Shown here piece after piece: positions 3,356 to 23,257 of a stretch of 64,000 nt of DNA (position 1 is the first letter of the stretch; the number at the start of each line of letters is the position of its first letter). The notes beneath the pieces were generated by a model that was given only the letters and a program-made list of their open reading frames with translations, ran no database searches and was not told where the DNA came from. The stretch spans positions 4,194,201 to 4,258,200 of the forward strand of contig OZ242383.1 of assembly GCA_965209155.1 (NCBI GenBank). The letters run 5' to 3'. The translations under genes were made by a program, and so were the position numbers. This stretch comes from a bacterium. Lineage in GTDB: Bacteria; SAR324; NAC60-12.

Positions 3356-4291
3356 TTAATATTTGAAAGGATTGATCAGCCGGGCGAGGAGGCCTCGTTT
3401 GCGTTTCCTGGCGCCATAACTACCTTGACCGCCCCGCATCCGGGGATCGAGCAGATCCCTGAGGGCGTCGCCGAACATGTTGAGGGAGTAAACGACAATC
3501 GTCAGACAAAGCCCCGGCCAGAGCGCTAACCAAGGCGCCGCCTCCATGTATTTGCGCCCTTCCCGACTGAGCATCCCTCCCCAGCTGGGAAAGTCGACGG
3601 GCAGACCGAATCCGAGGAAGCTCAGCGACGCTTCAGACATAATCACCCCCCCGATGTTGATGGAGAAGATGATGATGAGGGGCGCCATAATATTGGGAAG
3701 CACATGGTGGACCAGGATTTGGGCTGTGGGGGTGCCCACGGCTTTGGCTGCCAGAAAATAGTCATTCTCTTTGATGTCAATCACGGCGCCTCTGACGACT
3801 CTTGAGCTGACGATGCCGCCGGCAATCCCCAGGACGACGATGATCTGGAAGACACCCCGTCCCACGATGGACATGATCGTCAACAACAGCAGCAGTCCCG
3901 GAAAAGCCATCCAGGCATCGACAAAGCGCTGCACCACCAGGTCCCATTTCCCTCCCAGAAATCCGGAAATGCCGCCGATCAGAACAGCGACCACAAGATT
4001 AAGCGTGGTCGCTGCCAGACCGACCGTTAACGAAAGACGAGCCCCGTGGATCAGGCGGCTCAATAAGTCTCGCCCCACGTAGTCGGTCCCCAGCAGATAC
4101 CGGGCTGATGAGCCCTGCATCCTGTCTACCAGGTGTATTTCCATATAGCGATAAGGAGCCAGAGCATCGGCGAAGATCGCCACCAGAATCAAGATCAATA
4201 TGATCATCCCGCAGGCAGTCCCCAAGGGCTTCTCCCTGACCAGCCTGATAAAGAATGCAGCCAGCCGGACCCGTCGCTTGGGTTCACTCAT
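3356..4291 (-). CDS. ABC transporter permease (DppC/OppC-like)
   Basis: 311 aa, multiple hydrophobic helices, permease-type conserved loop region; 8-nt overlap with upstream permease gene. Confidence 0.75.
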   Translation of the reverse strand: MSEPKRRVRLAAFFIRLVREKPLGTACGMIILILILVAIFADALAPYRYMEIHLVDRMQGSSARYLLGTDYVGRDLLSRLIHGARLSLTVGLAATTLNLVVAVLIGGISGFLGGKWDLVVQRFVDAWMAFPGLLLLLTIMSIVGRGVFQIIVVLGIAGGIVSSRVVRGAVIDIKENDYFLAAKAVGTPTAQILVHHVLPNIMAPLIIIFSINIGGVIMSEASLSFLGFGLPVDFPSWGGMLSREGRKYMEAAPWLALWPGLCLTIVVYSLNMFGDALRDLLDPRMRGGQGSYGARKRKRGLLARLINPFKY

Positions 4292-5240
4292 ACCGCACCC
4301 TGGGGTCCAAATAGGGATAAATCAAGTCGATCAGGAGATTGAACCCCACCACTCCGGTGGCGAAAAACAGGTTCACTCCGGAGACCACCGGGTAGTCTCT
4401 GACTTCGAGGGCATCCAGCAAGAGGCGACCGATCCCCGGCAGGTTAAAGATGTTCTCCATGATCACGGAGCCACCTACCAGGATCGGCAACTGCAGGCCG
4501 ACCAGGGTGACGACCGGGATGAGGGCATTTTTGATGGTGTGCCGGATAATCACGATCCGCTCCCGGAGTCCCTTGGACCAGGCGGTGCGGATATAGTCCT
4601 GCCTTAAGACCTCCAGCATCATGGTGCGCGTCATCCGCATGGTGGCAGCCGCCGAGGCCGTCCCCAGAATCAGGCTGGGAATGAGGAACATGCCGAGATT
4701 CCCCAGCGGGTCTTCGGTGAACGAAACCAGCTCCATCGAGGGCGACCAACCCCACCAGATGGCCGGGTAGATCATGACCATGAGGGCGAGCCAGAAGTTA
4801 GGAGTTGCCAGGCCGATGATGGCGATGGAGCGCCCCAGGTAGTCCGCGGCCGTATCCTGGCGGATTGCCGAGTAGATGCCGACGGGCAGCGCGATCACGA
4901 GCCCAATGAGGATGGCCAGGACGCCCAGCTCCAGGGTGACGGGCAAACGATCGAAGAGCCGCTCCTCGATCCGCCAACTCCCCACCAGGGATTCACCCAG
5001 GGTGCCGCGCAGGAGGATGCCGCCGATCCAGCGTCCATACTGCACGTAGACAGGCACGTCTAATCCCAGCATATGCTCCAGCACTTCACGGTCAATCTTG
5101 CCGGCTTGTCCTTCAGCCCTTAGCACCATTACGTCTAGTACATCGCCGGGGATGAAGCGGACCGAGAGAAAGACCAGGATGCTCAGGATGAACAGGGTGG
5201 GGAGGATCAGCAATAACCGCCTGATGATATAGGCATTCAT
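4284..5240 (-). CDS. ABC transporter permease (DppB/OppB-like)
   Basis: ORF 4284..5321 trimmed to ATG at 5240 (N-terminus MNAYIIRRLLLILPTLF typical of DppB; GAGG SD upstream). Confidence 0.75.
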   Translation of the reverse strand: MNAYIIRRLLLILPTLFILSILVFLSVRFIPGDVLDVMVLRAEGQAGKIDREVLEHMLGLDVPVYVQYGRWIGGILLRGTLGESLVGSWRIEERLFDRLPVTLELGVLAILIGLVIALPVGIYSAIRQDTAADYLGRSIAIIGLATPNFWLALMVMIYPAIWWGWSPSMELVSFTEDPLGNLGMFLIPSLILGTASAAATMRMTRTMMLEVLRQDYIRTAWSKGLRERIVIIRHTIKNALIPVVTLVGLQLPILVGGSVIMENIFNLPGIGRLLLDALEVRDYPVVSGVNLFFATGVVGFNLLIDLIYPYLDPRVRYE

Positions 5241-5341
5241 GGGACGGACCTCATCATTTTTGAAATTGGTGTGGAAACGCGGGGTATCCTGGAGTGGAGT
5301 GGGCAGTACTGCCCGCTCCACAAGTGCTTCCAGTCGGCCTA

Positions 5342-7177
5342 TTACTGGGTTCTGTCCTTCAGCTCCTGGTCAATCCAAAGGCGGGCGAGAACTTCACGTT
5401 CGCCGAACTCTTCCAGTCTCATTTCACCGCTAAAACCTTTGACCCACGGCTGGTTCGCTATAAAAATTGGAGACATAGGACCCCATATCTGATTGTGCTG
5501 CTTTAGAATGAGCATATCCCACTCTTTGTATGCCCTCAGCTGCTCCTCATGGGTGGTAGCGGCGTAAAAGGCGTCATAGGCGGCGGTCAGCTCGGGGGTC
5601 TCGACTCCCCCCACGTTGTCGCGCCATATCTGCAGCCTCTGGCGATAATTAGCTACCCAAACTACAGGGTCACTATACATGCCCCCGTCGCCATCGCTTA
5701 TGTCCCACTGAATTAGGTCTTCTTGAGGGACATCCTCGGTACGCTCGCCCACACCCCTGCGATCGAACGCCCAACCTTGCGTGTCATATATCTCAATCTT
5801 TACCTCAACGCCAATCGCCTCCCAGTAGCCGACAGCTATTTCTCGATAGCCCAAATCATATATGTCGCGGTGGTCGAGGTCGACCTTGAATCGAACACCG
5901 TCCGCGCCCCGCGGATATCCAGCTTCATCGAGCAGCTTTTCGGCACCTTCCGGGTCATAAGCATAGTATTGCTTGAGATCTTCGGGAAAGTCTTCAAATG
6001 TGTTGACATATGGCTTGCTGGCAATCCCCCCCATAGGTTCCCACCTTGCAAGCCCGCCGTAGTAGGTATCGTTAATCGTCTCGAGGTCCAGTGCCATCTG
6101 CATTGCGTGGCGCACCCTGATGTCGTCAAAGGGTGGCTTTTTAATGTTCAGACTAAAGGTGGAGTCGGACCGCAGGAAATTGCTGCTCACTTGGATATCG
6201 GGGTTGGTACGCTGGAGGCTCCTTACCACGTCGAGGTTCCTTATATGAGTGCCCTGGCTATTGAATATGTCAACCTTGCCCGTGCGTAGTGCCGAGATAC
6301 GTGTTGCTTCTTCTTCCATGTGCAGGGCCCTCATCTGGTCAATATAGGGGAGGCGGTTCTCCGGGTACTTTTCGTCGTAGCGCCAGTAGTCAGGATTCTT
6401 TTCCCAGGTGATAGAGACGCCCTCGACATAGTCAGTCAGTATAAGGGGCCCGGTGCCGACCACGTTCTTCCAATCCTCATAGTTGCCGTATTTCTCGATT
6501 ACTTCGGGGGGTAATATCCACTGCATAGCATCGATGAGGATAGCCCTTAGCGCAATGAGGGATGGCTCCGTCATCTTCATAACAACCCTATATTTGTCGG
6601 TGGCCTCGATCGATTCCCACGGCAGGTCGATCGTTTTGGCAGGGATCTGGGGACGTTCGGTAAAGTCGCCCAGAGCGTTATGACGCTGCCAGCTATATAC
6701 GACATCATCGGCTGTGAGTTCCCGCCCGTTTACTAAGCGGCTGGCCTCACTGTCTGGATCAAGGGCGTAGTGTACTCCCGAGCGGATGTGGAAGATGTAA
6801 GTCAGTGGGTCAGGCATTTCCCAACTTTCCGCCAGGCTCCCTGTTATGGCAAAATCAGGGACGTAGGAGTCTCTAAAGTCATATACCTCCCTATCTACTC
6901 CCCAGTCCCCCCAGGCGAGACGCTCATTAACCTGGGCGATTTGGTAGCCCGCATTGACCCAGCTTTTTAGCGGGTCAGTAGTCTCCCCTACAAATACGTA
7001 GGGATAGGTCAATGTCCCGCCGTATTCTGGTGCGGTCACGACCTTACCCGTGCTCGGGTCGGTCACATATTTCTGGGCGGCAGCCGGGCTGACCCAAAAA
7101 GCGGCCACCATCAGGGTGAGGGTTATCATGAATAATGATTTGAATGATCGGATTGTACTGGTTTTTATAGTTTTCAT
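5342..7177 (-). CDS. ABC transporter substrate-binding protein, family 5 (peptide/nickel type)
   Basis: 611 aa with N-terminal signal peptide (MKTIKTSTIRSFKSLFMITLTLMVAAFWVSPAAA) and SBP family 5 length/composition; heads the SBP-permease-permease operon. Confidence 0.75.
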   Translation of the reverse strand: MKTIKTSTIRSFKSLFMITLTLMVAAFWVSPAAAQKYVTDPSTGKVVTAPEYGGTLTYPYVFVGETTDPLKSWVNAGYQIAQVNERLAWGDWGVDREVYDFRDSYVPDFAITGSLAESWEMPDPLTYIFHIRSGVHYALDPDSEASRLVNGRELTADDVVYSWQRHNALGDFTERPQIPAKTIDLPWESIEATDKYRVVMKMTEPSLIALRAILIDAMQWILPPEVIEKYGNYEDWKNVVGTGPLILTDYVEGVSITWEKNPDYWRYDEKYPENRLPYIDQMRALHMEEEATRISALRTGKVDIFNSQGTHIRNLDVVRSLQRTNPDIQVSSNFLRSDSTFSLNIKKPPFDDIRVRHAMQMALDLETINDTYYGGLARWEPMGGIASKPYVNTFEDFPEDLKQYYAYDPEGAEKLLDEAGYPRGADGVRFKVDLDHRDIYDLGYREIAVGYWEAIGVEVKIEIYDTQGWAFDRRGVGERTEDVPQEDLIQWDISDGDGGMYSDPVVWVANYRQRLQIWRDNVGGVETPELTAAYDAFYAATTHEEQLRAYKEWDMLILKQHNQIWGPMSPIFIANQPWVKGFSGEMRLEEFGEREVLARLWIDQELKDRTQ

Positions 7178-7205
7178 ATTACCTTTTCTTTCTATTTGTT
7201 TTTGT

Positions 7206-7417
7206 GTAACTATTCAGGTCTCTGAAAAACCCGTTCAGTTAAATATCATTAAAAAGATTCCCGGAGAGGAACGATCGTTTTCAAATCCTCCCACGATATT
7301 GTTCCATTGATCGGGAACCCTCTCTTTCACTAAAACAACTCAGTGAAGGCATGAGTTTAGCACTACTACTACTTGCGCAATGTCAACCCCATATTAAAAA
7401 AAAATGCAGGATTCGTA
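7206..7417. repeat. Left copy of ~212-bp imperfect inverted repeat bounding the 7.2-14.3 kb accessory block
   Basis: Reverse complement of 14068-14282 aligns over ~212 bp at roughly 88-90% identity (begins GTAACTATTCAGGTCTCTGAAAAACCCGTTCAGTTAAATATCATTAAAAAGATTCCCGGAGAGG); outer end is ~29 nt upstream of the SBP start codon. Confidence 0.8.
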
Positions 7418-7660
7418 AAAAAAATGAAAAATCTATCAGTCAGGGAGATCCACGTTCTAAGCGCTCTTGCTTCCATGGCTCTCGTTCTTTTTCAAAGAGT
7501 GGACTGGCTTCTTGAAGAGCCTCGAGGTGGGGAATCGTGGTGAGAAAAGTTGATTTTCTCTGATGTCTGCGACTAATGACCTGGAAAAAGAGGCTGCTTC
7601 CTTGTTGATCCAGGACTTTGTATTTCCCGAGAGACGGAATCATCCGCCTGGCGAATCCTT

Positions 7661-8920
7661 CTAGACATCTTCATCCTTCTCAGTTTCCTGCTCCGATTCA
7701 GGAACTTCTTCATAGCTGACTCTGAATTCGGTTCCCTCTGTTTCGGGGTGTGAATTGGGGTACAAACGCAACAGGTCCCATTCATTTATCGACGCTCGGA
7801 CCTTGTATCTCATCCTGTTTCGATATCCCGCCCCACCTACCATGCTCTTTAATGGTGGGGCTTCCCATCCATAGGCAACGCTGTAGATTTCCCGAAGTTT
7901 TTCGACGGTCGCTTTCACGTCTTCTGCGGTCGGGGGTTCTAGTGCAATAGTCTCCTGCTCAAGGCTCCGCATACCCACTTCAGCTCTGTCCGCAGCGTCA
8001 ATATTTCCACGGGAACGCAAACGGGAACCTGCCGAGTCGAGGTCCCGCTTGCCAGTTAAAATGGCTGTAGCGAAGTCGTCAGTTACCGTGCCAGCAACAA
8101 CCAGTCCTGGACATGCTTTAGCAGAAACCTCTCCCAACCAGAAGGCCAGCTCTGCATAGGAACGAGCTCTTTGAAGTGGTCCATAAGAAGCGACTAATTC
8201 GACTTCGTCTAACAAAACAACCCAACCATTGTAGCCTGCCGCCTTGATCAACTCTGTTGCGAACCGTAGCCGTAGTGGAGGTAATTCTCTCGCTTTCGGC
8301 GCTTTGAAGGGAAAATTCTGTAACTGACCTATTGCTTTGAGGCCATCTTTTACCTTAGCCATCGCAATCCGCTCTCCCGACCAGAACGCTCTGACTTCAT
8401 TAATCAGTTCAAGATCGTTTGTCCTTTCATGGAGCATCAAGGTTGCCGGGAAAACAGGGTGCAGTTGTCCACTTCGATTGGCCCACTGAAAAAAATGCGC
8501 ATAAGCATCTGTTTCCTGTTCAAGACTGAGTCCGATTTCTTCCATAAGCTGCCCGGTTCGGTCTGGTATCCGGCCGTTGTCTATCGCGGATGTGAATACC
8601 TTAGCCTGGTCATAGAGCGGCGTCTCTTTGCTGATAGCTACTCTACTACACACAAAACCCCGCTTCAACGCCAGGTGTTCCAGATAGGAAAGCAGGTGAG
8701 ACTTGCCTGTGCCAAAATCTCCGGAAACCAATATCCCCAAGGAACGGGAAGGAGGATTATCCGGATCCGTACACTTGGCCAAGAGTTCAGTGAACTGACT
8801 TACTACTTGAGACTGACCACATCCCAATCGTTTTACCGATTCCTCATTGGGCACGCCACTCCGCAGGGCTTCCAATGCCTGCCTGCAAGAAAAAGCACTT
8901 TTATCTATATCGGTACCCAT
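7661..8920 (-). CDS. P-loop NTPase of unknown function (third gene of three-gene operon)
   Basis: 419 aa; Walker A GDFGTGKSHLL and Walker B-like VVLLDEVE; acidic C-terminal tail; 16 nt downstream of the preceding ORF. Confidence 0.7.
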   Translation of the reverse strand: MGTDIDKSAFSCRQALEALRSGVPNEESVKRLGCGQSQVVSQFTELLAKCTDPDNPPSRSLGILVSGDFGTGKSHLLSYLEHLALKRGFVCSRVAISKETPLYDQAKVFTSAIDNGRIPDRTGQLMEEIGLSLEQETDAYAHFFQWANRSGQLHPVFPATLMLHERTNDLELINEVRAFWSGERIAMAKVKDGLKAIGQLQNFPFKAPKARELPPLRLRFATELIKAAGYNGWVVLLDEVELVASYGPLQRARSYAELAFWLGEVSAKACPGLVVAGTVTDDFATAILTGKRDLDSAGSRLRSRGNIDAADRAEVGMRSLEQETIALEPPTAEDVKATVEKLREIYSVAYGWEAPPLKSMVGGAGYRNRMRYKVRASINEWDLLRLYPNSHPETEGTEFRVSYEEVPESEQETEKDEDV

Positions 8921-8936
8921 ACGGATTTGTCCCTTC

Positions 8937-9887
8937 TTAAAAGAGTTGCACCAAAGGAGCTATAGGATTCACCAGATTTTTATCCCGAACATCATCCATA
9001 ACTCTTGTCATAAGGGCAGGATAAATACCAAACCCCCGGGAACGAGCATCCTGCTCAAGAAATGCGCCATCCGTCACGATCACAAGTAAAGTACTAACCA
9101 ATTGCTCAGTTCTATCGATTAATTGCCTCAAAAGTTCGTAGTGATCCGTCGTCATGCTTTTAGTGTAGTATCTGAGCCCATCTACCGGATTACGGGCAAG
9201 CGTCACACGGGAATTGTCGAGCAGAATCACGGTTCCTGCATGTCCCGTATACTGGAAATAGTAAAGTGCCGATTCAATGAAATACCTCGCTGTTTTGCGG
9301 TTGATGCTGGTGTAGATCGAAAATGGCCTGACCGCGCCAAGTTTGGCCTCTCCTGTTAGCCAATCAATCAGCGCTTGACCTTCGTAGGATTGATTTCCAC
9401 GGTTGTTCTCGTATCGGCAAAGATGAGTCATAGCAACCCTGAAATCTTTAGTCATACGATATTTTTTGGTAACTTTATTTTCTATTTGAGGTCTCAGCTC
9501 CTGCAGTACGGATTCCAACTCGAGATCATTGACTTCTCCCATAGCCTTATAAATGTTATCGGTTTGATGCGAATCAATGGAATCAACCCGATAGCCAATT
9601 TCCTTGGCCATGCGTAAGAGCAAGCGACGGGCCAATTTCCGCCAGTCAACCTGCTTGGCCATCTCGAAAAAGATGTCTTGGGGCATATGGATTCTGATAT
9701 CTGACGCATCCAGCTTGACAACGACATAATCCTGTTCCTTGCCTCGATTCTCCACTGTTTCATATAAGGTCGGTTTCAAATTTTCCGGGGTCACTGCAAA
9801 TTTTATGGACGCGCCGCCCTGCGGGATGAAAGACGATAAGTATTCGGAATCGATACGTCGCAGCCAATCATGAAGGGATAGGTTCAT
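8937..9887 (-). CDS. Hypothetical protein (second gene of three-gene operon)
   Basis: 316-aa ORF with GGAGG SD ~10 nt upstream; start codon 2 nt from the stop of the upstream ORF; no motif assignable by eye. Confidence 0.6.
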   Translation of the reverse strand: MNLSLHDWLRRIDSEYLSSFIPQGGASIKFAVTPENLKPTLYETVENRGKEQDYVVVKLDASDIRIHMPQDIFFEMAKQVDWRKLARRLLLRMAKEIGYRVDSIDSHQTDNIYKAMGEVNDLELESVLQELRPQIENKVTKKYRMTKDFRVAMTHLCRYENNRGNQSYEGQALIDWLTGEAKLGAVRPFSIYTSINRKTARYFIESALYYFQYTGHAGTVILLDNSRVTLARNPVDGLRYYTKSMTTDHYELLRQLIDRTEQLVSTLLVIVTDGAFLEQDARSRGFGIYPALMTRVMDDVRDKNLVNPIAPLVQLF

Positions 9888-9889
9888 TA

Positions 9890-10681
9890 TTATTTGCCTC
9901 CAATGAATTGGATTCCGTAATATGACACCACTTGCCCGTCGGAACCTACGATGGGAAAACTGCCTCGCGCGCTCCTTGCCAATGTAGAAGAGGGAAAAGC
10001 TACGCGTGCGCCAGACTTTGTACTGGACGGACCATTGATCTCCAAGAAATAAAGGTCCTTTGCAAAATCCAGCTTTTTATAATCATTGCTGGCCCCGGGA
10101 AGAGAGGTGAATGCCTTATAGATTTCCTCTAGAGGTACCACAGGTTCTTTGATTGAAGAACCGACAGAGGAGGGTTTAGCGCAGAGTTTGTAATTAAAGT
10201 ACAAAGCCTCCAAGAAGCGGTCTGAACGAAATCGGGGTGGTTTTTTCTGGTTATTGGTCAGGATGTCAGCAAGGTAAGACGGTCTCAACGTCGATACTTT
10301 TTTCCGATCAATTCTCACTACCTGACTCTCAGGTAAGATTTGAACAATAGACGGGTGAGAAATCAATGCGCCATCTCTTTCATAGAGGTTCAATCCCTTT
10401 CTTTCCGCTGTGTCACATAGCTCGGCAGCATAGTGTTCCTTGAGGTATTCTATCTCTTTTCCATCCTCAAAAGGCCATGTTTCTACCGCGTTTTCCACCT
10501 CCTGCCTTAGAGAACATAGAGCGCTGTTTAACTTTGAAGCAGCCTTTTTTAGTGCGCTGATATCCCCTTTCTTTGCTGCATTCCGTAAAACTCCGGCCAA
10601 CTTTGCAAGTTCTAATGCAGATTTCATTGTTGAATTTGCAGCTTTTTCCGTATCACTGAAGGCCCGTTCAAAGCTCGTCAT
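9890..10681 (-). CDS. Hypothetical protein (first gene of three-gene operon)
   Basis: 263-aa ORF with AAGGGG SD upstream, helical-looking N-terminal half; no recognisable family. Confidence 0.6.
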   Translation of the reverse strand: MTSFERAFSDTEKAANSTMKSALELAKLAGVLRNAAKKGDISALKKAASKLNSALCSLRQEVENAVETWPFEDGKEIEYLKEHYAAELCDTAERKGLNLYERDGALISHPSIVQILPESQVVRIDRKKVSTLRPSYLADILTNNQKKPPRFRSDRFLEALYFNYKLCAKPSSVGSSIKEPVVPLEEIYKAFTSLPGASNDYKKLDFAKDLYFLEINGPSSTKSGARVAFPSSTLARSARGSFPIVGSDGQVVSYYGIQFIGGK

Positions 10682-11604
10682 TATCTACCCCTTTGCTTCC
10701 GTTCATTTTCCCACAACCCAGCCTTGTCATGGTTTGTTGAGTTATAACCTTGATGTCATCTCGACCGCATGGAGAGATCCCAAGATTCCTCACGTTCGTT
10801 CGAAATGACACATTTTTAAATGGGATATAACCTAACGAACCATTACATCTTAGGGACTAAAATAGTGTTTTTTATAACCGTTTTTTGAGAAAATAGGCAA
10901 GCAAAAAAATCAGAAAAAGTTTGACAGTGATTTTTGAATATTTTTTTAACTGTTCATTGATTCAAATTAGCAGTGTTGAATCTTACGCAATCTTTGCTCA
11001 GATTTAAGAACCTGTTTAAAAATTACGTACTGCGTTTTAACATGAGTCGAATCATAGCGATATAGACAATGACTTCAGCAGTGTGAGCATATCTTTCATA
11101 ATCGGTATTTTGTCGATGATACTATCCAAACCAAGAAATGGTTCTTTCCACAATCCATCACAATATGTCGTTTCCGTCCCTTCACCTTTTTTCCTCCTTA
11201 AAACCCCCGGAACCTCGCTGTTTTTCTGCATTTTGATTTTCTCACTCATCTGTCTCCTTTCTCCTTTTCATCAAATTTCCTTGCTCCTATGTCCCTCCAC
11301 AGCTGTTCAAAATTGTCCTGCAATCATTTTATAAGTCTCCACCCGATCTTTCGCATTGATTCTTTCTCGGGATCTGCGTACCTTTTTCATACGATCTCCC
11401 TTCGTTGGGTTAAAGTTTTGCGTGGTCCATGAAACCACAACATAACGAATGTGAGTTCATTTTTCAGTTTTCAACTAATTTTTGGACATTTCCTACCTTT
11501 AGTCCTTCCAGAATATTTTCTTTTGTCAGTTATTTTAAGTCAATAGCTGTTTGGCAATAAAATTGCATGTCTTTTTAATGTCCATTTTTTTAAAAAGGAG
11601 GTAG

Positions 11605-11883
11605 ATGTATCAAAGCAATTTAAGCGATCAGCAATGGTCTGAGATTGAACATTTTTTTAGACGTTCCGATCCCCGAGGTGCCAAAAGTATTCATAGCAAA
11701 CATACCATCGTCAATGCGATTTTATATGTGTTGGAAACGGGTTGTCAGTGGAGACTGCTTCCCCACGATTTTCCTCCCTGGCAAACCGTTTACGATCATT
11801 ATCGCCGCTGGAATCAAAGAGGGATTTGGCAAGAGGTTTTGGATTTCCTCAATGCCCGCACTCGCGTGAAAGAGGGTTCTTAG
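11605..11883 (+). mobile_element. IS5-family (IS4/5 DUF4096-type) transposase N-terminal fragment, IS remnant
   Basis: 92 aa with the characteristic N-terminal region (NAILYVLETGCQWRLLPHDFPPWQTVYDHYRRWNQRGIWQEVL) but no DDE catalytic domain follows. Confidence 0.7.
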
Positions 11884-11935
11884 AGTCCTTCCAATGTTTT
11901 CTTTTTTGTCAGTCTTTTGACCTTATAGATGCCTT

Positions 11936-12367
11936 ATGTCCTCAGAAACTTCTCTGATTGAAAAGCTCCAACGCATTGAGCGACTTTATGAAGGAGCCAT
12001 CACAGAAGGGGAACGCCTTGCCGCTGAAGAAGCTCTGCAACGGATCGGGGAAAGATTGCGCAAGATTCAACAGAAGGATCCTGTGGTTGAATACAAATTC
12101 ACCTTTCCCGACTTCTGGAGGCGGCGTTTGTTTGTTGCTCTGCTGAGACGTTACGGGTTTCGTCCTTATCGTTATCGAGGGCAACGTCACACGACAGTGA
12201 TGACTCGAATATCGAAATCATTTGTGGATCAAACTCTCTGGCCGGTCTTTTTAGACTTGTCTGAAGCGTTGGTTTCCCACCTGGATGAGATCACCACCCG
12301 CATCATCCAACAAGCGATTTATTCCGATAGTTCTGAGGCAGAAGAAAGAGACATGCTGCCCGGTTAA
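11936..12367 (+). CDS. Hypothetical protein
   Basis: 143-aa ORF between IS fragment and methyltransferase fragment; charged, helical composition; no family recognised. Confidence 0.35.
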   Translation: MSSETSLIEKLQRIERLYEGAITEGERLAAEEALQRIGERLRKIQQKDPVVEYKFTFPDFWRRRLFVALLRRYGFRPYRYRGQRHTTVMTRISKSFVDQTLWPVFLDLSEALVSHLDEITTRIIQQAIYSDSSEAEERDMLPG

Positions 12368-12390
12368 CCCCTTGAAGTTTTTATTGCCGA

Positions 12391-12924
12391 TTGTATGCTT
12401 TCATTAGGCGTAACTGCAGAGTCCCGGACTGTTGGGGACTGAAGGATCGTGACCTGATGGGATTGCCTTGGCGAGTAGCATTTGCATTACAAGACGACGG
12501 ATGGTTGCTGCGCTCAAAAATCACCTGGCTGAAGAAAGCTCCTATGCCCGAAAGCGTCAAGAACCGACCGTCAAACGCCACAGAGGAAATCTTTCTGTTC
12601 TCAAAAAGTGCAAAATACTACTACAACAATCAGGCAGTGCGAGAAGAAACCGGCGCCAATCTCCGGAATTACTGGCTGTTGGGGACGGATGCTGGTGACA
12701 AGCTGCATCCCGCCGTTTTTCCAAAAGAATTGGCACGGCGCTGCATAATCTTGGGTAGCCGTCCCGGAGATGTGATTCTTGACCCGTTTTCAGGGTCGGG
12801 AACTACTGGCATAGCAGCGATCGAGTCAAATCGTCGCGTCGTCCTTATTGAATTGAACGAAGAATATGCGACACAATCCGAAACCCGGATAAATAAGGGC
12901 GTACAGCAAACCTTAGCTGTTTAG
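12391..12924 (+). pseudogene. N-truncated DNA methyltransferase (beta-class N6A/N4C type), C-terminal portion only
   Basis: Contains the region preceding motif I (LHPAVFPKELARRCI) and motif I itself (DPFSGSGTT) plus the upstream ITWLKK segment, but the DPPY-type catalytic motif that lies N-terminal in this class is absent. Confidence 0.6.
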
Positions 12925-12941
12925 CTCCGATAAATTGCGCC

Positions 12942-13238
12942 ATGAGTACACTTTCAGAATTACGGCGAAGTTATCACTCCAAAATTGGCTCGCAAATAGT
13001 CCGATTCTCCGAGAGAAATCGCTTGCTTTATCCAAACTTTGCCGATGGCAGCAGTCAATCCAGCGTTTTCATTGCAAATGGAATAATAGATTGTGTATAT
13101 CACTTCGCTTTGGATGAGTTGCGCCAAGTCTGTGAAGCCATTCCCAAGGTGAAAGATCAATCAGAAATGCTGGCAGTCATGGTCGAAGGTAGTAGACTTC
13201 GTGACATAAGTGATTTGCCTTTCGATATTGTTGTTTAG
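12942..13238 (+). CDS. Hypothetical protein
   Basis: 98-aa ORF only; weak support. Confidence 0.25.
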   Translation: MSTLSELRRSYHSKIGSQIVRFSERNRLLYPNFADGSSQSSVFIANGIIDCVYHFALDELRQVCEAIPKVKDQSEMLAVMVEGSRLRDISDLPFDIVV

Positions 13239-14067
13239 AGGTCAATCGTTGCATTCATTGGATTGTTGAAAAATCCCGTGCAATGGAATCCGTCAAATCA
13301 CCACACCGTTGTATGGAGAGGAGTTTAAATCATGAGTAGCTCGATCCAACAATCCCTGCCCTTTGAAGAAGCAGTACACCTTGAAGGTCCTGGTCGACTC
13401 GGTCAGGCGAAGATCGAGTACGCCCCCGTCCAAAACATTCTGACGCGCGCAAAATGAAGCTTTTAGTGTCCTTCAAATGCACTTGCCGGATCTCGGTGAA
13501 GGAAAGGACGGCTTTGCTCCCCCTTTTGAAACCGAATGAAGGAAAATCCACGATGATTTTCAAAAAAAATTGCATGCTTGTGCTCTCAGGTCTCCACATC
13601 GTGGTCCACAAGCGTTCGATTGAAAGGCAAAGCAATGACTAAAAAGCCGAATCACTATCGCAGCGGATGGTTTATTTTCCGAGTCGGTAACATACGCCTC
13701 GGTATGTACCATCATGGTCTGGGCGATTGATAAAATTAAAGACAAGCGGGTGATACTCTCTCTTTTGCGGCATTGAATAACCCAGGAAATTCTCGCGGCT
13801 GTTTTGAGGTTTTATGAATAATGAGTCTTCCACAAGGTTTAAACCTCAAAAAACGCTATTGGGGCTGACACTTTTGGGCGAGAGGATATTTTTGCGCAAC
13901 GGCAGGTCAAGTTATTGATGAAATGATTAAAAGTTATTTGGAGCATCATTTTGAATCGAATCCTGATGATGATTTTCAGACCGAAGCCTAAACGGGTCTG
14001 AAATGACCCGTATCCGTACTTTCAGTACTTGAGTTTAAACCCTCCATCTTCGGACGGTGTTTGTTTA

Positions 14068-14282
14068 TTTTTTTTACGAATCCTGCATTTTTTCATTTGG
14101 AGGTTGACATTTTGCAAGATATATTGCCAAAATCATGCCTTTACTAAGTTGTTTTAGTGAAAGAAAAGGTTCCCGATCGATTGAGCAATATCGTGGAAGG
14201 ACTTGAAAACGATCGGTCCTCTCCGGAAATCTTTTTTAATGATATTTAACTGAACGGGTTTTTCAGAGACCTGAATAGTTAC
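14068..14282. repeat. Right copy of ~212-bp imperfect inverted repeat bounding the accessory block
   Basis: Reverse-complement match to 7206-7417; outer end ~73 nt upstream of the lipoprotein start codon at 14355. Confidence 0.8.
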
Positions 14283-14354: not shown

Positions 14355-15341
14355 ATGACGGATACGCCACATGCAACTCCTCAAGATCATAATCAGGATA
14401 TGCTTCCTGCAAAGTTCGTTTTGAATAAATACCGGATCATTTTCGTAGCATTAACGCTTGTCGCGGTCGGCCTCGCCGCATGCGGCGGTGGAAAATCAGG
14501 ATCGGATCCCCTTAGTAGCCTTGAAAGCATCAGAGAACTGACTGGCATGACGGCACCGGTAGAGAAGCCCGCGGCGCAAAAAGCACGAGCACCAGGTATT
14601 GCCTCGCGATCCGACTCTCTGATCATCTCTACGACGTACGTGGAAACGAGCGACGATGAACTTCCCACTTTTAGCTTCGGGGCGCAGTGCGCCGGTACTC
14701 GGTGCACGATATCGGAGCCCAGGATCGGATACGTCAGGACCGTTACCCTGTCTGAACTCGAGACCATAACCCTGTCTGAACTCGAGATCGTGGACGGCTC
14801 TCCTGAAGCAGTTGGAACCAAGCACGGCATCACCCTGATGTCGGTAACCGGCCGGCGCATGGACGATGAGTTCACTACGTTTGGAGCATGGATGGCGCAT
14901 GGCGGGTTTCAGGTTGAGACCGCGCGTGTGGTAATCCCGGATGATATCAGGATGAACCTCGTCTCCGGCCTCGCTTTGGGTGATCTCACGGGCAGCCGTC
15001 CAAGAGGGAGCGCAACGTGGATCGGTCTTATGGTTGGAACGCCTGCCACAGGGGATAACCTCGGAGACAGGCTGCAGGGAGATGCGGCCTTGAACTACGA
15101 CATGAGCGCCGGCGGTGGGCTCGACGTCGGTTTCAGCAGTATCAAGAACATCGACCGTGGCACGGCGCACACGACATCCACAGTGCTATTCGCAGACGTT
15201 CCAATCAGTTCGAGTGGGACGTTTGAAGCAGGCCATGCTGGCAACCGCATCCAGGGCGGTTTCTACGGTCCTGATCACATTGAGGCTGCTGGAATTTTCG
15301 AGCAGTCAAACATCGTCGGAGCCTTCGGAGCAAAACGATGA
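14355..15341 (+). CDS. Surface lipoprotein with TbpB-like C-terminal beta-barrel (handle) domain
   Basis: Lipobox (VAVGLAACGGG) after a signal peptide; C-terminus NRIQGGFYGPDHIEAAGIFEQSNIVGAFGAKR matches the terminal motif of transferrin-binding-protein-B-like lipoproteins. Confidence 0.55.
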   Translation: MTDTPHATPQDHNQDMLPAKFVLNKYRIIFVALTLVAVGLAACGGGKSGSDPLSSLESIRELTGMTAPVEKPAAQKARAPGIASRSDSLIISTTYVETSDDELPTFSFGAQCAGTRCTISEPRIGYVRTVTLSELETITLSELEIVDGSPEAVGTKHGITLMSVTGRRMDDEFTTFGAWMAHGGFQVETARVVIPDDIRMNLVSGLALGDLTGSRPRGSATWIGLMVGTPATGDNLGDRLQGDAALNYDMSAGGGLDVGFSSIKNIDRGTAHTTSTVLFADVPISSSGTFEAGHAGNRIQGGFYGPDHIEAAGIFEQSNIVGAFGAKR

Positions 15342-15885: not shown

Positions 15886-16140
15886 CCGAATGAGATCACT
15901 CCCCCGCTGAATCTCATATGAAAGCGTTCTGGCTAGAAAGTTTGGAAAAGTAGCGTTTTTTTCTTATTCAAATCGATTTTACTTTCCTTTTCGCTTGTTT
16001 CTGAAAATGGCTCGTCAACCACGCCTTTACTATCCTGGCGCGCTTTAGCATGTGAATCTTCGTGGCCATGGAGGGCAAACCTTTTTTTCTGTCCTTCCTA
16101 CTATCGACAATTTTATCACTTGCTCCCAGATGGTTCCCAA

Positions 16141-16640
16141 TGCTTTGATCACCGGATTCACGCCTTTTGCTTAATGAGCAATCGTGTTCCTCCCTACTCT
16201 CTTCCTCTTTGAAGACAGATCATTCATCAAATGGATCGAGTTTATCAACTACCGGAGAATGAATTAACCCGAGTTCGACATAAATCTTCAATAATAGGAG
16301 TATTCTGGCGTTTATGTCTTTCCGGGCGCAGACCCGAAATCCAGATTTCAGTCTGGCTGCATACCTCTGGATTCCTGGTCAAGCCAGGAATGACACGTTT
16401 TCTCTACAGTCACGAAAGTCGAGTGAAGCCCGCGCGATGATTAGCCTGTTGGCTGTCGATTGGAAGTCCGCCACTATTCGAGTAGTCGGAAAATTTTAAA
16501 TTGAGATGATTTGACGATCAGCTTTGCTATGCACCAGTTGCGACAACGATTGAAGGAATCCGAGGGTCTCCAAATTCAATTAGAGGAACTAAAACGTCAA
16601 ATACTTGCTTGAAGTTTCAAACTTTCAGGCCTGACTCCTT
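16141..16640 (+). repeat. Dispersed ~500-bp repeat, element X copy 1
   Basis: Near-identical to 18060-18556 and, over its 3-prime ~240 bp, to 21961-22200; contains an embedded REP-like hairpin unit. Confidence 0.75.
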
Positions 16641-16833
16641 TTTTTTCACTCCTATAAAGAATTTCATAAGGTGAAGTAGATGTCTGGCCTATGTAGTTCT
16701 GAAAACCGCCGTTATAGCCCATGTAAAAATTCCCGTCCAAATCGCTTGAGTAACCGGGGCGACTGTCTTTCTCAACTCGCTTTTGGTTGTCTACAAAATC
16801 GGACTGTATTTTTATTTCTCGTTTCTTCGCCAT
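16597..16833 (-). CDS. Small hypothetical protein
   Basis: 78-aa ORF with AAGGGAAAG SD, just downstream of the lipoprotein gene; last codons run into element X. Confidence 0.3.
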   Translation of the reverse strand: MAKKREIKIQSDFVDNQKRVEKDSRPGYSSDLDGNFYMGYNGGFQNYIGQTSTSPYEILYRSEKKGVRPESLKLQASI

Positions 16834-16868
16834 AACACTTTCCCTTTCAATCAGAAAATAAATCTAAA

Positions 16869-17591
16869 TCAATTCTCTTTCATAGCTTTCCAACGCTTAA
16901 AAACAAAATCCACCATAAATTTATGAATCTCATATCCTCCATAATAATCATCTCTTAATTTTTGTACCATCGCAACATTAGGAGTCACAAAATTAGAAAG
17001 GTATAACTCATCAAAACGATCCAAATTTATACGATCCACAACAACTTTAATGATAGTATGTTGTTGATTGGACCCTGATAATAACACTAATTGATCATAA
17101 CCATAAGAATCTCTTCTAATATCAAAGCTAATAAAATCCAAAGAGATTAATTCTTCTTCACGTACTAAACTGATAAGTTCCTTCCACTCTCGATCATAAT
17201 AATATGCCCCTAATCCACAACGCTTATTCACATTATCACTCCATCGAGCCACTATTATCACTCTTGAATCATCAGGATATTTTTTCTCTTCGTAAAACCT
17301 TGAATGATAACCCATTATAGGTTGACCAGAAACATCATATTCCTCAATCTGTATCACGCAACCTTCAGGAAAAACTCGCTCAATTTTTTCAAAAAAAGTT
17401 AACTCCATATCAGGTTCAATTTCTGCCTCGACCACCTCAGGTAATACAGGAACTACCACTGAATCTTTGACAGTAGGAATTTGCTGAATACCATCATCCA
17501 CTTGAACACCAGCAACCGGAGCAGTCTCTTGAACCGGCATCGCACAACCAAACAAAAAGACCACTACAAATAACAAATAAAAAATTCTCAT
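16869..17591 (-). CDS. Hypothetical lipoprotein
   Basis: 240 aa; signal peptide with lipobox (FLFGCAM); AT-rich codon usage typical of this island. Confidence 0.55.
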   Translation of the reverse strand: MRIFYLLFVVVFLFGCAMPVQETAPVAGVQVDDGIQQIPTVKDSVVVPVLPEVVEAEIEPDMELTFFEKIERVFPEGCVIQIEEYDVSGQPIMGYHSRFYEEKKYPDDSRVIIVARWSDNVNKRCGLGAYYYDREWKELISLVREEELISLDFISFDIRRDSYGYDQLVLLSGSNQQHTIIKVVVDRINLDRFDELYLSNFVTPNVAMVQKLRDDYYGGYEIHKFMVDFVFKRWKAMKEN

Positions 17592-17642
17592 AAAACTCCT
17601 GTTATCGTACCATTAATAAAAAGGGATTTGTAGGCCATGTGA

Positions 17643-17990
17643 TCAATCATCAATAAACTCCCAACAAGTTGTGTTCGTTACTGCTTCAAATACATCACAA
17701 GCAAGTATTCTTGATGAACCGCCTTTATCATCTTCAATACTTAAATGATACTCTTCTCCATTCTTACATTTAACTGCAATATATAATGCAGCAGTATTCC
17801 AATCAATCCTTCTTATAAAATATTTCGTTACTGCACAAGAGACCCCAGACGCTGGACTAGCGAGCATAGTTAGAAATCGAATTTATTCTTTTTCGCTATC
17901 TCCATAAATTTGATAAAACCAGCGATTTGCATGAATTTGAGAAAACGATAATAAAATTGAAATCAACAGATAACAAATAATCTTTTTCAT
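17643..17990 (-). pseudogene. Secreted-protein gene interrupted by an in-frame TAA stop
   Basis: A 35-codon ORF starting at ~17990 encodes a signal peptide (MKKIICYLLISILLSFSQIHA) and is in the same frame as ORF 17643..17867, separated by a single TAA. Confidence 0.4.
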
Positions 17991-18009
17991 AACACATTCT
18001 AAAGGAACT

Positions 18010-18556
18010 GAAACGTCCAATACCTACTTGAAGTTTCAAACTTTCAGGCCTGACTCCTTTTTCATTATCACCGGATTCACGCTTTTTACTTAATGAGCAA
18101 TCATGTTCCTCCCTGCTCTCTTCCTCTTTGAGGACGGATCATTCATCAAGAGGCTCGAGTTTATCAACTACCGGAGAATGAATTAACCCGAGTTCGACAT
18201 AAATCTTCAATAATAGGAGTATCCTGGCGTTTATGTCATTCCGGGCGAAGACCCGGAATCCAGGTTTCAGTCTGGCTGCATACCTCTGGATTCCTGGTCA
18301 AGCCTGGAATGACACGTTTTCTCTGCAGTCACGAAAGTCGAGTGAAGCCCGCGCGATGATTGACCTGTTGGCATTCGATTGGAAGTCCGCAACAATTCGG
18401 GAGGTCGGAAACGTTTTCAATCGAGATGATTAAACGATTAGGTTTGGAGTGCACCGCTTGAGACCACGATTGAAGGAATCCGAAAGTCTCCAAATTCAAT
18501 TAGAGGAACTGAAACATCAAATACTTGCTTGAAGTTCCAAACTTTCAAACCAGACC
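18010..18556 (+). repeat. Dispersed repeat, element X copy 2 (with tail of an additional copy at its 5-prime end)
   Basis: Aligns with 16141-16640 along nearly the full length; the tail motif CTTGAAGTTTCAAACTTTCAGGCCTGACTCC is present at both ends. Confidence 0.75.
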
Positions 18557-18713
18557 TTGGTACTCACCAATCCCCGCGATATCTGACCGGGTGGAACGAT
18601 ATTCCTTCATCCGGCATTATTTCCAATTTATTTAAATGTTCCTATTATTGAATCAGTCTTTTTATCATAGACCTCAATTGTAGTTGCCAAAATAAACATT
18701 CTGAAATTTTCAT

Positions 18714-19040
18714 CTAATTCACTTCACCTGATAAAATAATTATACAATCATTACTACTGAATAGTCCTGAACGGCAATTTTTATTAAAATAATCCATAAA
18801 ATTTTTTCGGCCAATTCGGCTTAATATATCGGCACTTGCTCGAAGTGTATATCCATCAGATTGTACATCAAAATAATCATTTACTGATAATTTATCAGCA
18901 AAATAACTTGTTGTTCCTGCAAATTTAATCTCGTATCCTATTGACGCAAAATCAAAGGTATAGTCCTTTAATGTGGTTCTAAAAGGTTCGGCTTGAATAA
19001 TATTTACAAAAATTAAACCGATTAAAATATTTAAAGACAA
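18714..19040 (-). CDS. Small secreted hypothetical protein
   Basis: 108 aa with N-terminal signal peptide (MSLNILIGLIFVNIIQA). Confidence 0.45.
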   Translation of the reverse strand: MSLNILIGLIFVNIIQAEPFRTTLKDYTFDFASIGYEIKFAGTTSYFADKLSVNDYFDVQSDGYTLRASADILSRIGRKNFMDYFNKNCRSGLFSSNDCIIILSGEVN

Positions 19041-19104
19041 ATAAACGTTTCATATTGTATTCTCCATATTGAAGGTATTTCAAAATCGATCCAAAATTAT
19101 CAAT

Positions 19105-19455
19105 TCAAACTGAGATTGATTCTTTTTTTTTCTTAGGTTCAATTATTGCCAGGACACCACCTATAAAAGCTAAAACCATAAAAATCGCTACTATCGTACC
19201 ACCTAAAATTGCACCTACAATCGCACAAAGACATGTTATAATTCCCGGGATTCGGCTGTTTGAAGTTAAAGTAATTGCTCCCATAACTATGGTAAGAAAA
19301 GAAAAGAGAACTCCACCCCAGCCGAGACCGATTACTGTATTCGCCCCTTCCGCTTGAAAGGCACCGCCTATTCCACCTATGAATAAAGTTGCACCGGCAG
19401 CAAATACACTGAAAATACCTGCAATTATTGCAATAATTCCTCCTGCTTTTCTCAT
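19105..19455 (-). CDS. Glycine-rich small integral membrane protein
   Basis: 116 aa, three to four hydrophobic segments rich in small-xxx-small glycine motifs, lysine-rich C-terminal tail. Confidence 0.5.
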   Translation of the reverse strand: MRKAGGIIAIIAGIFSVFAAGATLFIGGIGGAFQAEGANTVIGLGWGGVLFSFLTIVMGAITLTSNSRIPGIITCLCAIVGAILGGTIVAIFMVLAFIGGVLAIIEPKKKKESISV

Positions 19456-19525
19456 ATCATCTCCTTTCTGTTATTTTTGCGTCAATAGAATCCATTCGAT
19501 TCTGCCAGAAGTTCTACTTCACGAA

Positions 19526-19822
19526 TTATTTTCTCCTTTTGAAATCTTCTTTGATGACCCGGAACACGTATCTCATCTCGTCCTCAGACTTTTTCCCGAA
19601 ACGTTTTGCCATCCTGTAACCGAGATTAGTCCACGTCAATTTTTTTAATGCCAGTTTCCCAATTTCTTTTTTATTTAAAATTAGATTATTCCAAGAAAAA
19701 ATAAAATTTTCTAAATGCTTATTAGTTGGATTTTTGTTCGTAACATCCTTTACAAACTCTTTATCCAAAGCCAAGCGTTCCAGTTCAGCCAACACTTGCA
19801 GGTGAGTCACTTCTCGATTCAA
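19526..19822 (-). CDS. Small protein, member of local paralog family (LTW-x-LGY-x-M motif)
   Basis: 98 aa; shares a conserved C-terminal core with ORFs 20760..21020 and 21020..21286; a fragment of its 5-prime end is repeated at ~20490-20600. Confidence 0.5.
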   Translation of the reverse strand: MNREVTHLQVLAELERLALDKEFVKDVTNKNPTNKHLENFIFSWNNLILNKKEIGKLALKKLTWTNLGYRMAKRFGKKSEDEMRYVFRVIKEDFKRRK

Positions 19823-19834
19823 TTTGACCTCTTT

Positions 19835-20326
19835 TCACAATTCATTTTTTACTATTTCCTGAATAATTTTTTTAAATCTCTTAAATTCAATCTTTAATTC
19901 TTGTATAGTTTTATCTAATTCAACCATGTTCTTTCTGGAATTCATTTTAAATTCTTCATACGTCATATCAGGATCATATGTAGGTGATAATCGGACACTA
20001 ATAAAAAGAAGAACAAATGAACAAATAAAAACAACAAATGCTCGCTTTCGAGTTGGCAAGTACAAACGAGAAATGGGGTACAACATACAAATAAACGATA
20101 TTATACTAATGATCATAAAGACAAATACTAAAATAATACTTATTTCTTCCATTGTAGGTGGTAATTGGACACTAATAAAAAAAAGAACAAATGAACAAAT
20201 AAAAACAACAAATGCCCGCTTTCGAGTTGGCAAGTACAAACGAGAAATGGGGTACAACATACAAATAAACGATATTATACCAATGATCATACAGACAAAT
20301 ACTAAAATAATGCTTATTTCTTCCAT
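19835..20326 (-). CDS. Membrane protein with internal tandem duplication
   Basis: 163 aa; a ~58-aa unit with a transmembrane helix (MEEISIILVFV...RKRAFVVFICSFVL) occurs twice, from a direct ~186-bp DNA tandem repeat; opposite-strand ORF 19926..20594 judged a shadow. Confidence 0.45.
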   Translation of the reverse strand: MEEISIILVFVCMIIGIISFICMLYPISRLYLPTRKRAFVVFICSFVLFFISVQLPPTMEEISIILVFVFMIISIISFICMLYPISRLYLPTRKRAFVVFICSFVLLFISVRLSPTYDPDMTYEEFKMNSRKNMVELDKTIQELKIEFKRFKKIIQEIVKNEL

Positions 20327-20759
20327 AAATTACCTGTTTTTATTACAACCTAAATTGAGCGATTCTTTTCAAGAAATGGATTTTTCAGATGATTATTGTG
20401 CCCAAGGAATCGAATCATTGAGATATAAGCATTTGATCATCAAATTCATGGAAGTTCGGGTCAGAATGGATCTCAAGTTGATGTTTTCGGCTGTGGGGAA
20501 ACTTCATTTCTCATGCTATGCACACACTCATCCTCAGCCAGGCGTTCCAGTTCAGCCAACACTTGCAGGTGAGTCACTTTTCGATGCATTTTGACCTCTT
20601 TTCACAATTCATTTATTAGTATTTCCTGAATAATCTTTGCTTCACGGCATTCTTTATCTCGTGTTACTTCTTCCAAGCGCTTTAATTCTTTTATCGTGGA
20701 GACAGCGAAAATGACTTATTTCCCGGTGAATTTGAATTCCGTTCTTTTCAGGTATATAT

Positions 20760-21020
20760 TCATGATTTATCTGAATATTCATCAGCCAGGATGCGATAGG
20801 CATAGTCAATGTCTTCCGGATCTTGAGTTTTAAAATACCTGCCCATTTCGTAACCCAGACTGATCCACGTAATATAATTTAAATCAACCGTATCCAATCT
20901 TTTCCCTTTCCAGCCATCACGGAATGCTGATTGTTTATCCTCCGTAGGTGGCTCACGATTATCGGCAAATTTTTCCTCTTGTAATTCCCGAAGACGATTT
21001 AATACATTTTGATATCTCAT
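20760..21020 (-). CDS. Small protein, paralog family member
   Basis: 86 aa; NLTWxSLGYEMG...DPEDIDY...RILADEY core shared with its tandem neighbour. Confidence 0.5.
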   Translation of the reverse strand: MRYQNVLNRLRELQEEKFADNREPPTEDKQSAFRDGWKGKRLDTVDLNYITWISLGYEMGRYFKTQDPEDIDYAYRILADEYSDKS

Positions 21021-21286
21021 TATTCCCTATTATTTTTTGAATATTCATCAGCCAGGATGCGATAGACATAGTCAATATCTTCCGGATCTTGAGTTTTAAA
21101 ATACTTGCCCATTTCGTAACCCAGACTTTTCCACGTGAGGTTATTCGGATTTAATCTTGATATTCCTTTTCCAAACCATGCTTGTCGAAATGCTGATTGT
21201 TTATGCTCCGTAGGTGGCTCACGCTTTTCGACAGGCTTTTCCTCTTTTAATTCCTGAAGACGATTTAAGATTTCTGAATATTTCAT
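21020..21286 (-). CDS. Small protein, paralog family member
   Basis: 88 aa; tandem with 20760..21020, overlapping stop/start (translational coupling). Confidence 0.5.
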   Translation of the reverse strand: MKYSEILNRLQELKEEKPVEKREPPTEHKQSAFRQAWFGKGISRLNPNNLTWKSLGYEMGKYFKTQDPEDIDYVYRILADEYSKNNRE

Positions 21287-21383
21287 AATTCTCCTTTATC
21301 TTTAAGATTTTTCCTTAGGATTTTAAGCAGATATAAAACGTTTTGATATCTGCTTGGTACTCCTTAGAATTAAGATTTGAATA

Positions 21384-21700
21384 TAAAAAAACACTTGAAA
21401 AAATTTGCAAAAGGAGATTGAGCTGGGTTAGTATTTTTGATTGCCGAAAGGAGGATATAAAAAAAGCCCGTCTTCCCTCATGGGAAAATTCTTGAAAAAC
21501 ATTGCCGTGTTTCTCAAGGATATGATGGGTGTCCTGCTCCTCCTTTGGCCTTCTTGCTTTCCTGTCATTTCCTCCCTTTCATCGATGACCGGGCGGCCAA
21601 CTCACTGGGTCTTTCCCTTTTTACCAGGTTATCGATGACGCCAGCAAACTTGGTTTCCGTGTTGGTGAACCTTTTGTTAAGGAAAAAGAAGTTAAGAAAT
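21384..21700 (+). repeat. Dispersed ~320-bp repeat, element Y copy 1 (promoter-like)
   Basis: Shares with 22915-23250 and 25317-25650 a TTGCAA-N17-TAGTAT-like motif followed by an 11-bp inverted repeat CCAAAGGAGGA ... TCCTCCTTTGG about 85 nt apart. Confidence 0.65.
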
Positions 21701-22200: not shown

Positions 22201-22213
22201 AAACTAAAGAGAT

Positions 22214-23250: not shown

Positions 23251-23257
23251 GAAATTG

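Follow-up and report, generated by a model that had tools for sequence, protein, structure and literature searches.

What brought the stump of a transposase gene and a truncated DNA methyltransferase gene together in this marine SAR324-type genome, and does either of them still work? The two genes lie in a stretch of 64,000 nucleotides from the 4.26-Mb contig OZ242383.1, which was analyzed as a whole and is referred to here as the window. ClpX, encoded at window 29205-30485, shares 86% identity with its counterpart in metagenome-assembled genomes (MAGs) of the SAR324 cluster. The first-pass annotation of the window described an IS5-family transposase remnant next to an orphan methyltransferase. 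Four open reading frames (ORFs) follow one another on the plus strand, namely the IS5 stump ORF (11605-11883), an ORF of 143 amino acids (aa) (11936-12367), the methyltransferase (12391-12924) and an endonuclease (12942-13238). The transposase remnant is thus not directly next to the methyltransferase, since the intact and conserved 143-aa ORF stands between them, nor is it an independent neighbor, being nested within a truncated IS66-family insertion sequence (IS) that we call ISX. With a probability of roughly 0.9, we read positions 11491-13238 as two dead modules fused by deletion, ISX with its IS5 stump on the left and a restriction-modification (R-M) pair of the NgoMIV type on the right.

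Sister contigs were found by exact-protein look-up of the 143-aa ORF, which returned L001, a syntenic 78-kb metagenome contig, and the short Tara scaffolds L002 and L003. The window and L001 are collinear over window 3681-12405; L001 then carries 2,032 bp extra and resumes at window position 12406 with 99.8% identity. In this blastn comparison, a deletion junction lies at 12405/12406, where L001 10471-12502 is missing. The lost 2,032 bp run from inside ISX into methyltransferase codon 118 and carry an ISX transposase remnant with the right inverted repeat (IR), an 80-aa ORF and methyltransferase codons 1-118. The junction reads ...GCTTTCATT joined to AGGCGTAAC... and was recovered base for base in L002 and L003, which are independent Tara assemblies.

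The methyltransferase gene (12391-12924, plus strand) is a pseudogene of 177 aa with a TTG start, and its N-terminal truncation, which had been proposed from the translation, was borne out: the match to Pfam N6_N4_Mtase begins at profile position 61 and ends at 219 of 221 (E 6.7e-35). The fragment opens with 5 codons derived from ISX and continues with residues 119-290 of a beta-class (N4-cytosine/N6-adenine) Type II enzyme of 290 aa. S-adenosylmethionine (AdoMet)-binding motif I (FxGxG) is present as DPFSGSGTT, and residues 1-118, including the SPPY motif IV (aa 42-45), are gone. The catalytic motif had rightly been described as lost, but it had been taken for a DPPY-type motif. A six-frame scan of 10600-13300 found no [DSN]PP[YFW] motif. 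The intact methyltransferase in L001 is 290 aa long, matches PADLOC MTase_II (E 1.3e-90) and carries motif IV as TSPPYW at aa 41-46, a form characteristic of N4-cytosine enzymes. The retained methyltransferase DNA in the window is identical to L001 12503-13021 at 519/519 nt. An upstream start that restores the catalytic motif can be dismissed: a TGA in frame at 12373-12375 leaves no room for a methyltransferase start farther upstream; no frame contains SPPY or DPPY, and the upstream sequence is IS-derived.

The 177-aa fragment could still be functional, either as the C-terminal part of a split methyltransferase or as a repurposed AdoMet-binding protein. Its frame is open for 177 codons, motif I and the AdoMet-binding region at the C-terminus are retained, and the truncated allele occurs in several natural populations. 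However, tblastn over the 64 kb found no copy of the missing N-terminal half, which rules out its relocation elsewhere in the window, and the fragment starts with 5 IS-derived codons after a deletion junction. In L002, one more deletion (approximately window 12583-12975) has already taken the motif I region together with the start of the endonuclease. The absence of any substitution relative to L001 gives no evidence of selection either way. A retained function of the fragment is therefore very improbable, and we return to the reading of a dead R-M pair.

The methyltransferase had also been called an orphan with no evident restriction endonuclease partner. This did not hold, because the ORF at 12942-13238 (plus strand, 98 aa), which begins 17 nt past the methyltransferase stop, matches Pfam NgoMIV_restric at 219-275 of 275 (E 3.2e-19); the partner persists as an in-frame deletion remnant. 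This endonuclease pseudogene also keeps the true N-terminus of the NgoMIV family. Codons 49-238 are deleted, the missing segment being L001 16899-17469, and codons 1-48 run in frame into the final ~50 codons at 13085/13086. In CCGG-family enzymes the active site is PD-x(46-53)-K-x13-E and an RxDR stretch reads the CCGG core (PMC3413111). In the numbering of the reconstructed enzyme, PD138, K189-x13-E203 and RSDR193-196 all fall inside the deleted codons, and the window endonuclease is left without any of its catalytic and CCGG-recognition residues. Because the pair lacks the SPPY motif on one side and PD...K-x13-E and RxDR on the other, neither R-M gene is expected to function.

The less-decayed allele in L001 allowed the enzyme to be reconstructed. 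After a 1-nt frameshift near codon 58 is bridged, the L001 endonuclease has 289 codons and aligns end to end with NgoMIV (PDB 1fiu, E 1.2e-75). An independent locus, L093, holds intact members of both families, a 291-aa methyltransferase (72% identity) and, after a 3-nt gap, a 291-aa endonuclease (57% identity). PD...K-x13-E and RSDR are both present in the L001 and L093 endonucleases, and judged by these residues the restored endonuclease would be specific for a CCGG core. Among 79 more distant methyltransferase loci, none (0/79) has an endonuclease of the NgoMIV family. The intact L093 pair argues that the methyltransferase and the NgoMIV-type endonuclease form a genuine cognate system.

Across the sister alleles, the endonuclease has been disabled in three mutually exclusive ways, in the window, in L001 and in L173. 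In L001, a 3.7-kb insertion sits on the ATG, with an IS21-family transposase (NCBIfam 231 bits against a cut-off of 160), IstB and a 7-bp duplication, CATGAGT. In L173, whose flanks are 98% identical, the endonuclease is replaced after about codon 69, and its first ~57-70 residues continue into an unrelated ORF of the SNase/HHH type. L001 and L173 retain an intact methyltransferase; the window and the Tara contigs have the truncated form. L174, a fourth allele, is free of IS and R-M DNA here. The three endonuclease inactivations, together with the intact methyltransferase in L001 and L173, support an order in which the endonuclease would have died first and the methyltransferase would then have become dispensable.

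These alleles suggest the following history. The left module would have been an ISX copy that already carried a defective IS5 copy in its 5' leader, and what survives of it would be the ISX leader, the IS5 stump with its 92-aa ORF and the intact 143-aa gene. The right module would have been a Type II R-M operon, with an N4-cytosine-type beta-class methyltransferase gene followed by an NgoMIV-family endonuclease gene. ISX would have inserted ~0.9 kb upstream of the methyltransferase. The catalytic core of the endonuclease would have been lost by an in-frame deletion of ~570 bp, leaving the methyltransferase dispensable, and the later 2,032-bp deletion would have taken the ISX transposase, the intergenic region and methyltransferase codons 1-118.

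Several points weigh against this reading. The internal deletion of the endonuclease is found in the window's own assembly only, and its product forms a singleton cluster. Measured against L001 the deletion is 571 bp, not 570, and is in frame only given the 1-nt frameshift of L001, which may be a real mutation or an assembly error at low coverage (7x). The breakpoints of either large deletion show neither microhomology nor an IS end; an adjacent deletion mediated by an IS end accordingly finds no support as the cause of the methyltransferase truncation. The endonuclease-first order is read from the sister alleles and is not seen in the lineage of the window. The uniqueness of the endonuclease junction, the abundance of repeats and IS copies in the region and the low coverage of the related long-read contigs could also be taken to mean that the deletion junctions are assembly artifacts and that the real genome has intact R-M genes. 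We give this explanation the slimmest of chances, as the methyltransferase junction recurs unchanged in short-read scaffolds, neither deletion junction lies in repeated sequence, and the flanking alignment to L001 is collinear at 98-99.8% identity. The two fused and dead modules remain our preferred reading.

Three further differences among the alleles were observed. At window 13452/13453, 198 bp of L001 (17837-18034) are absent and the 107-aa ORF next downstream of the endonuclease is shortened to 41 aa, a further deletion within the same module. A fragment of 87 bp of an istB gene lies at window 7536-7622 (minus strand) and is 97% identical to the IS21-family element of L001; therefore, that IS21 element was once present in, or passed through, the window lineage. 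In L173, the fused SNase/helix-hairpin-helix ORF (L173 3012-4070) has a radical-SAM protein and a DEAD/UvrD helicase of 1,701 aa as its next neighbors (L173 1-2768), so that an alternative nuclease/helicase cargo fills the same spot.

The left module is a truncated ISX (11491-12405, plus strand) that is 94-98% identical to the copies in L090, L091 and L092. A complete ISX is found at L091 7265-10280. It is 3,016 bp long with perfect 23-bp IRs, GTAAATATTCGCTTAACCCCGTT, and an 8-bp duplication, TTTGATTG, and its genes are the 143-aa ORF and a transposase of 555 aa, which scores 270 bits against the NCBIfam IS66 equivalog cut-off of 180. The window copy runs from element position 46 (11491) to 38 nt beyond the stop of the 143-aa ORF (12405), and it lacks the first 45 nt, with the left IR, and everything beyond the first ~11 nt of the transposase gene. 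The ISX IR had 0 matches in the window at up to 3 mismatches, and the IS66 transposase (DDE_Tnp_IS66) had no tblastn match in the window. The left IR is retained in L173.

The IS5 stump stands in the 5' leader of ISX and is flanked by a 35-nt direct repeat (11501-11535 and 11884-11918). This repeat is too long for a target duplication. It is instead a piece of the ISX leader that was duplicated in connection with the nesting, because ISX copies without a nested element (L176 and others) carry a single copy of the 35-nt segment. The nested element (11543-11879, plus strand) belongs to the IS5 family (IS427-like, two-ORF) and is a doubly deleted copy of 337 bp when aligned with the copies in L004 and L092 (3788-4625). 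One deletion is common to the L090, L091 and L092 copies; the other removed a further 239 bp between 7-nt repeats, AAGAGGG, and these 239 bp are present in L090, L091 and L092. The left IR is kept at 11543-11560. Of the right end only GAGGGTTC (~8 nt) is left, followed by TTA (11880-11882), and with TCA on the left flank versus TTA on the right there is no clean target duplication of the short (2-3 bp) IS5 kind.

The transposase ORF at 11605-11883 (plus strand, 92 aa) had been described as an N-terminal part only, and this was confirmed. Its sole Pfam match is DUF4096 (E 2.5e-28), an N-terminal domain of IS4/IS5 transposases and the DNA-binding part of IS5 OrfA, and it covers positions 1-86 of 258 of the NCBIfam IS5 model NF033580. 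The ORF product shares 89% identity with residues 1-91 of OrfA from the complete L092 copy, and at the DNA level IS5-family copies of a related MAG match the ORF in their 5' part at 85-90% identity. The stop codon is made by the IS5 right end plus flank (TTAG). Complete copies (L092 3788-4625, L004) are ~840 bp long and have AGAnCTGTTTGG-type inverted repeats flanked by (T)TA/TAA; their two overlapping ORFs correspond to positions 1-122 and 120-256 of the model. A tblastn search with the complete two-ORF copy found no DDE part and no OrfB homology beside the 92-aa ORF in any frame, and a complete transposase made by programmed frameshifting is thereby excluded. Because the DDE domain is missing and almost no right end remains, the IS5 stump is predicted to be unable to transpose by itself.

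A truncated transposase of this kind could instead be kept as a regulator, a DNA-binding inhibitor of IS5 transposition. The DUF4096 frame is open in many copies (92-, 108-, 139- and 153-aa variants), sister genomes hold active-looking IS5 relatives, and the window and L001 versions of the 92-aa ORF differ at 4 synonymous codons and 1 nonsynonymous codon. Five codon differences, however, are too few to show selection. In addition, the end-point of the ORF shifts with each deletion, its stop codon is supplied by chance from the IS end, and the nested IS5 copies travel with ISX as passengers rather than spreading by themselves. We consider a regulatory role of the 92-aa ORF unlikely and regard the stump as part of the dead left module.

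An older and heavily deleted IS5-family remnant lies immediately upstream (11026-11490, minus strand). It was recognized by tblastn and by a weak match to the NCBIfam IS5 model (219-258 of 258, E 3e-5), and its minus-strand frames read GGKKVKGRKRHIVMD (11197-11153) and WIVERTISWFG...IAMIRLMLKRST (11157-11026). Its outer terminus, ...GGACATTTCC at 11490, is a recurrent rearrangement breakpoint, as three different continuations follow the ...CATTTCC terminus, one in the window and L001, one in L173 and one in L174. In L173, the old IS5 terminus is followed by 359 bp and then by the intact left repeat of ISX. Therefore, 403 bp have gone from the window and L001, and the loss begins precisely at the old IS5 end (11490/11491).

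The 143-aa ORF (11936-12367, plus strand), the first gene of ISX, is the sole intact gene inside 11491-13238 and belongs to a conserved family without annotation; the first-pass annotation had passed over it. Its product had no Pfam, NCBIfam or PADLOC match, and the AlphaFold model (predicted local distance difference test score, pLDDT, 79.7) had no informative fold match. Homologues (n=535, about 60% identical) occur across phyla, in cyanobacteria, Verrucomicrobia, Deltaproteobacteria and others, and all are annotated as hypothetical; distant family members stand alone, without an IS. The window, L001 and L003 versions differ from one another at 5-8 synonymous sites and encode the same protein, and the ratio of nonsynonymous to synonymous substitution rates (dN/dS) among eight copies is 0-0.3, values that point to purifying selection. 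The full 143-aa length is kept in the decayed ISX copies of L001, L092, L173 and L175-L184. Of the transposase, L001 and L175-L184 hold fragments only, and L092 and L173 have lost most or all of its gene. L090 departs from this pattern, as the C-terminus of its ORF is replaced.

A second decayed ISX occurs at an RlmN-linked locus in sister MAGs (L175-L184), with a left IR, an intact 143-aa ORF and transposase residues 169-302 only. It lies in a variable region, upstream of the genes for a ~640-aa N6_N4 methyltransferase, DUF6161 and Vsr, which makes this the second methyltransferase locus associated with ISX. The 143-aa ORF thus stands just upstream of N6_N4 methyltransferases at two independent loci, in the window and L001 and in L175-L184. 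We take the ORF for an accessory or cargo gene of the IS66 family. That it is a selected gene of this kind, one that outlives the transposase of its element, is a bolder reading that we offer tentatively and hold to be rather doubtful. The protein could be a transposition regulator; it could also be a small DNA-binding factor tied to methyltransferase or defense loci, acting for instance in anti-restriction or addiction. The 143-aa ORF is the one feature of wider interest at this locus.

The fused modules lie in a block bounded by an inverted repeat, as the first-pass annotation had noticed. Self-blast found two inverted copies of a ~225-bp sequence, at 7206-7431 and 14061-14282, that are 87% identical over 228 bp. 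Each copy fronts an outward-facing gene for a secreted protein: the left copy ends 29 nt upstream of a gene for an SBP_bac_5 transporter component (5342-7177, minus strand), and the right copy lies 73 nt upstream of a TbpB-like lipoprotein gene (14355-15341, plus strand). A TTGACA-like box is present in each copy. IS ends and a structured RNA were tried as explanations and rejected, as the duplication had no Rfam match and no RNA structure signal (fold z-score -0.7). It looks like a duplicated promoter-leader for the two outward-facing genes rather than IS ends. No tRNA gene marks an integration site.

The block had further been taken for a fast-turnover defense island holding a decayed R-M or mobile module. 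The comparison of sister alleles directly supports the decayed module and the rapid turnover, and five alleles make this a structurally hypervariable spot; "defense island" is an overstatement. Beyond the R-M remnant, the only defense-like genes in 7206-14282 are those of a three-gene operon (7661-10681, minus strand). It encodes two weak BrxD-like ATPases, of 419 aa and 316 aa (PADLOC E 2.5e-17 and 1.4e-11), the larger of which is also a weak SngB match, and a 263-aa protein without any match. The operon is conserved in all four alleles. The bacteriophage exclusion (BREX) core genes, for the PglX methyltransferase, PglZ and BrxC, are missing, and no other BREX genes lie near 7661-10681. The operon may be an uncharacterized defense module.

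Repeats are common elsewhere in the window. A 567-bp repeat forms an inverted pair, 98% identical and 15 kb apart (47243-47809 and 63646-63080), with a partial third copy at 1428-1743; L174 holds a full copy where the window has the partial one. A stretch at ~16100-26000, which encodes a DUF7424 protein, has a low GC content (29-38% versus 45-60% in its neighbors) and was probably acquired separately. It is rich in dispersed repeats (16148-16635 versus 18067-18555, 90%; 21382-21674 versus 22912-23200 and 25312-25597) and contains a tandem repeat at 19979-20326. Related short tandem-like repeats with 70-96% mutual identity lie in or near ORFs at 26232-26649, 33895-34073 and 43831-44041.

R-M systems decay, usually losing the endonuclease first, and insertion sequences accumulate in such spots. 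By this standard the locus is a case of routine defense-gene decay among members of known families, NgoMIV-type Type II R-M, IS5 and IS66. Its value is a well-resolved natural decay series, with at least five structural alleles of one locus in populations ~98% identical. The series leads from an intact methyltransferase with three independently killed endonucleases to a truncated methyltransferase and then to a further deletion, and it could be useful for teaching pseudogene annotation in MAGs or for benchmarking it.

The remains can be compared with the systems they derive from. As a small Type II enzyme, the truncated methyltransferase is not the PglX of BREX. The nested IS5 copy shares the DUF4096 domain and the left inverted repeat with the IS427-like type of the IS5 family (NF033580), and the size and the two overlapping ORFs of the complete copies match IS427-group elements (PMC3281130). 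Unlike those elements, the window copy is 337 bp long, lacks the DDE domain (DDE_Tnp_1) and retains ~8 nt of the right end. The complete ISX shares GTAA-initiated 23-bp IRs, the 8-bp target duplication and a transposase at IS66 level with the IS66 family, of which the 8-bp duplication and the multi-ORF layout are traits (PMC3281130). It differs in its upstream 143-aa ORF, which matches no known family, including the TnpA/TnpB accessory families, and the window copy differs from intact IS66 elements in having lost both inverted repeats and the transposase.

The intact methyltransferase allele resembles the beta-class N4-cytosine/N6-adenine Type II enzymes (PF01555; M.PvuII, 1boo; TTHA0409, 2zie), with full-length PF01555 and MTase_II matches and the same motif order, SPPY before FxGxG. 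The window copy, unlike these enzymes, begins at residue 119 without motif IV and is a pseudogene. The less-decayed endonuclease allele conserves the PD...K-x13-E and RSDR of NgoMIV (G/CCGGC) and the CCGG-family Type IIF/IIP enzymes Cfr10I, Bse634I and SgrAI (PDB 1fiu/4abt), whereas the window enzyme holds none of these family-defining residues. The arrangement is also NgoMIV-type, the endonuclease gene lying directly downstream of the methyltransferase gene. NgoMIV's own partner is a C5-cytosine methyltransferase, whereas the partner here is of the N6_N4 type, with SPPY.

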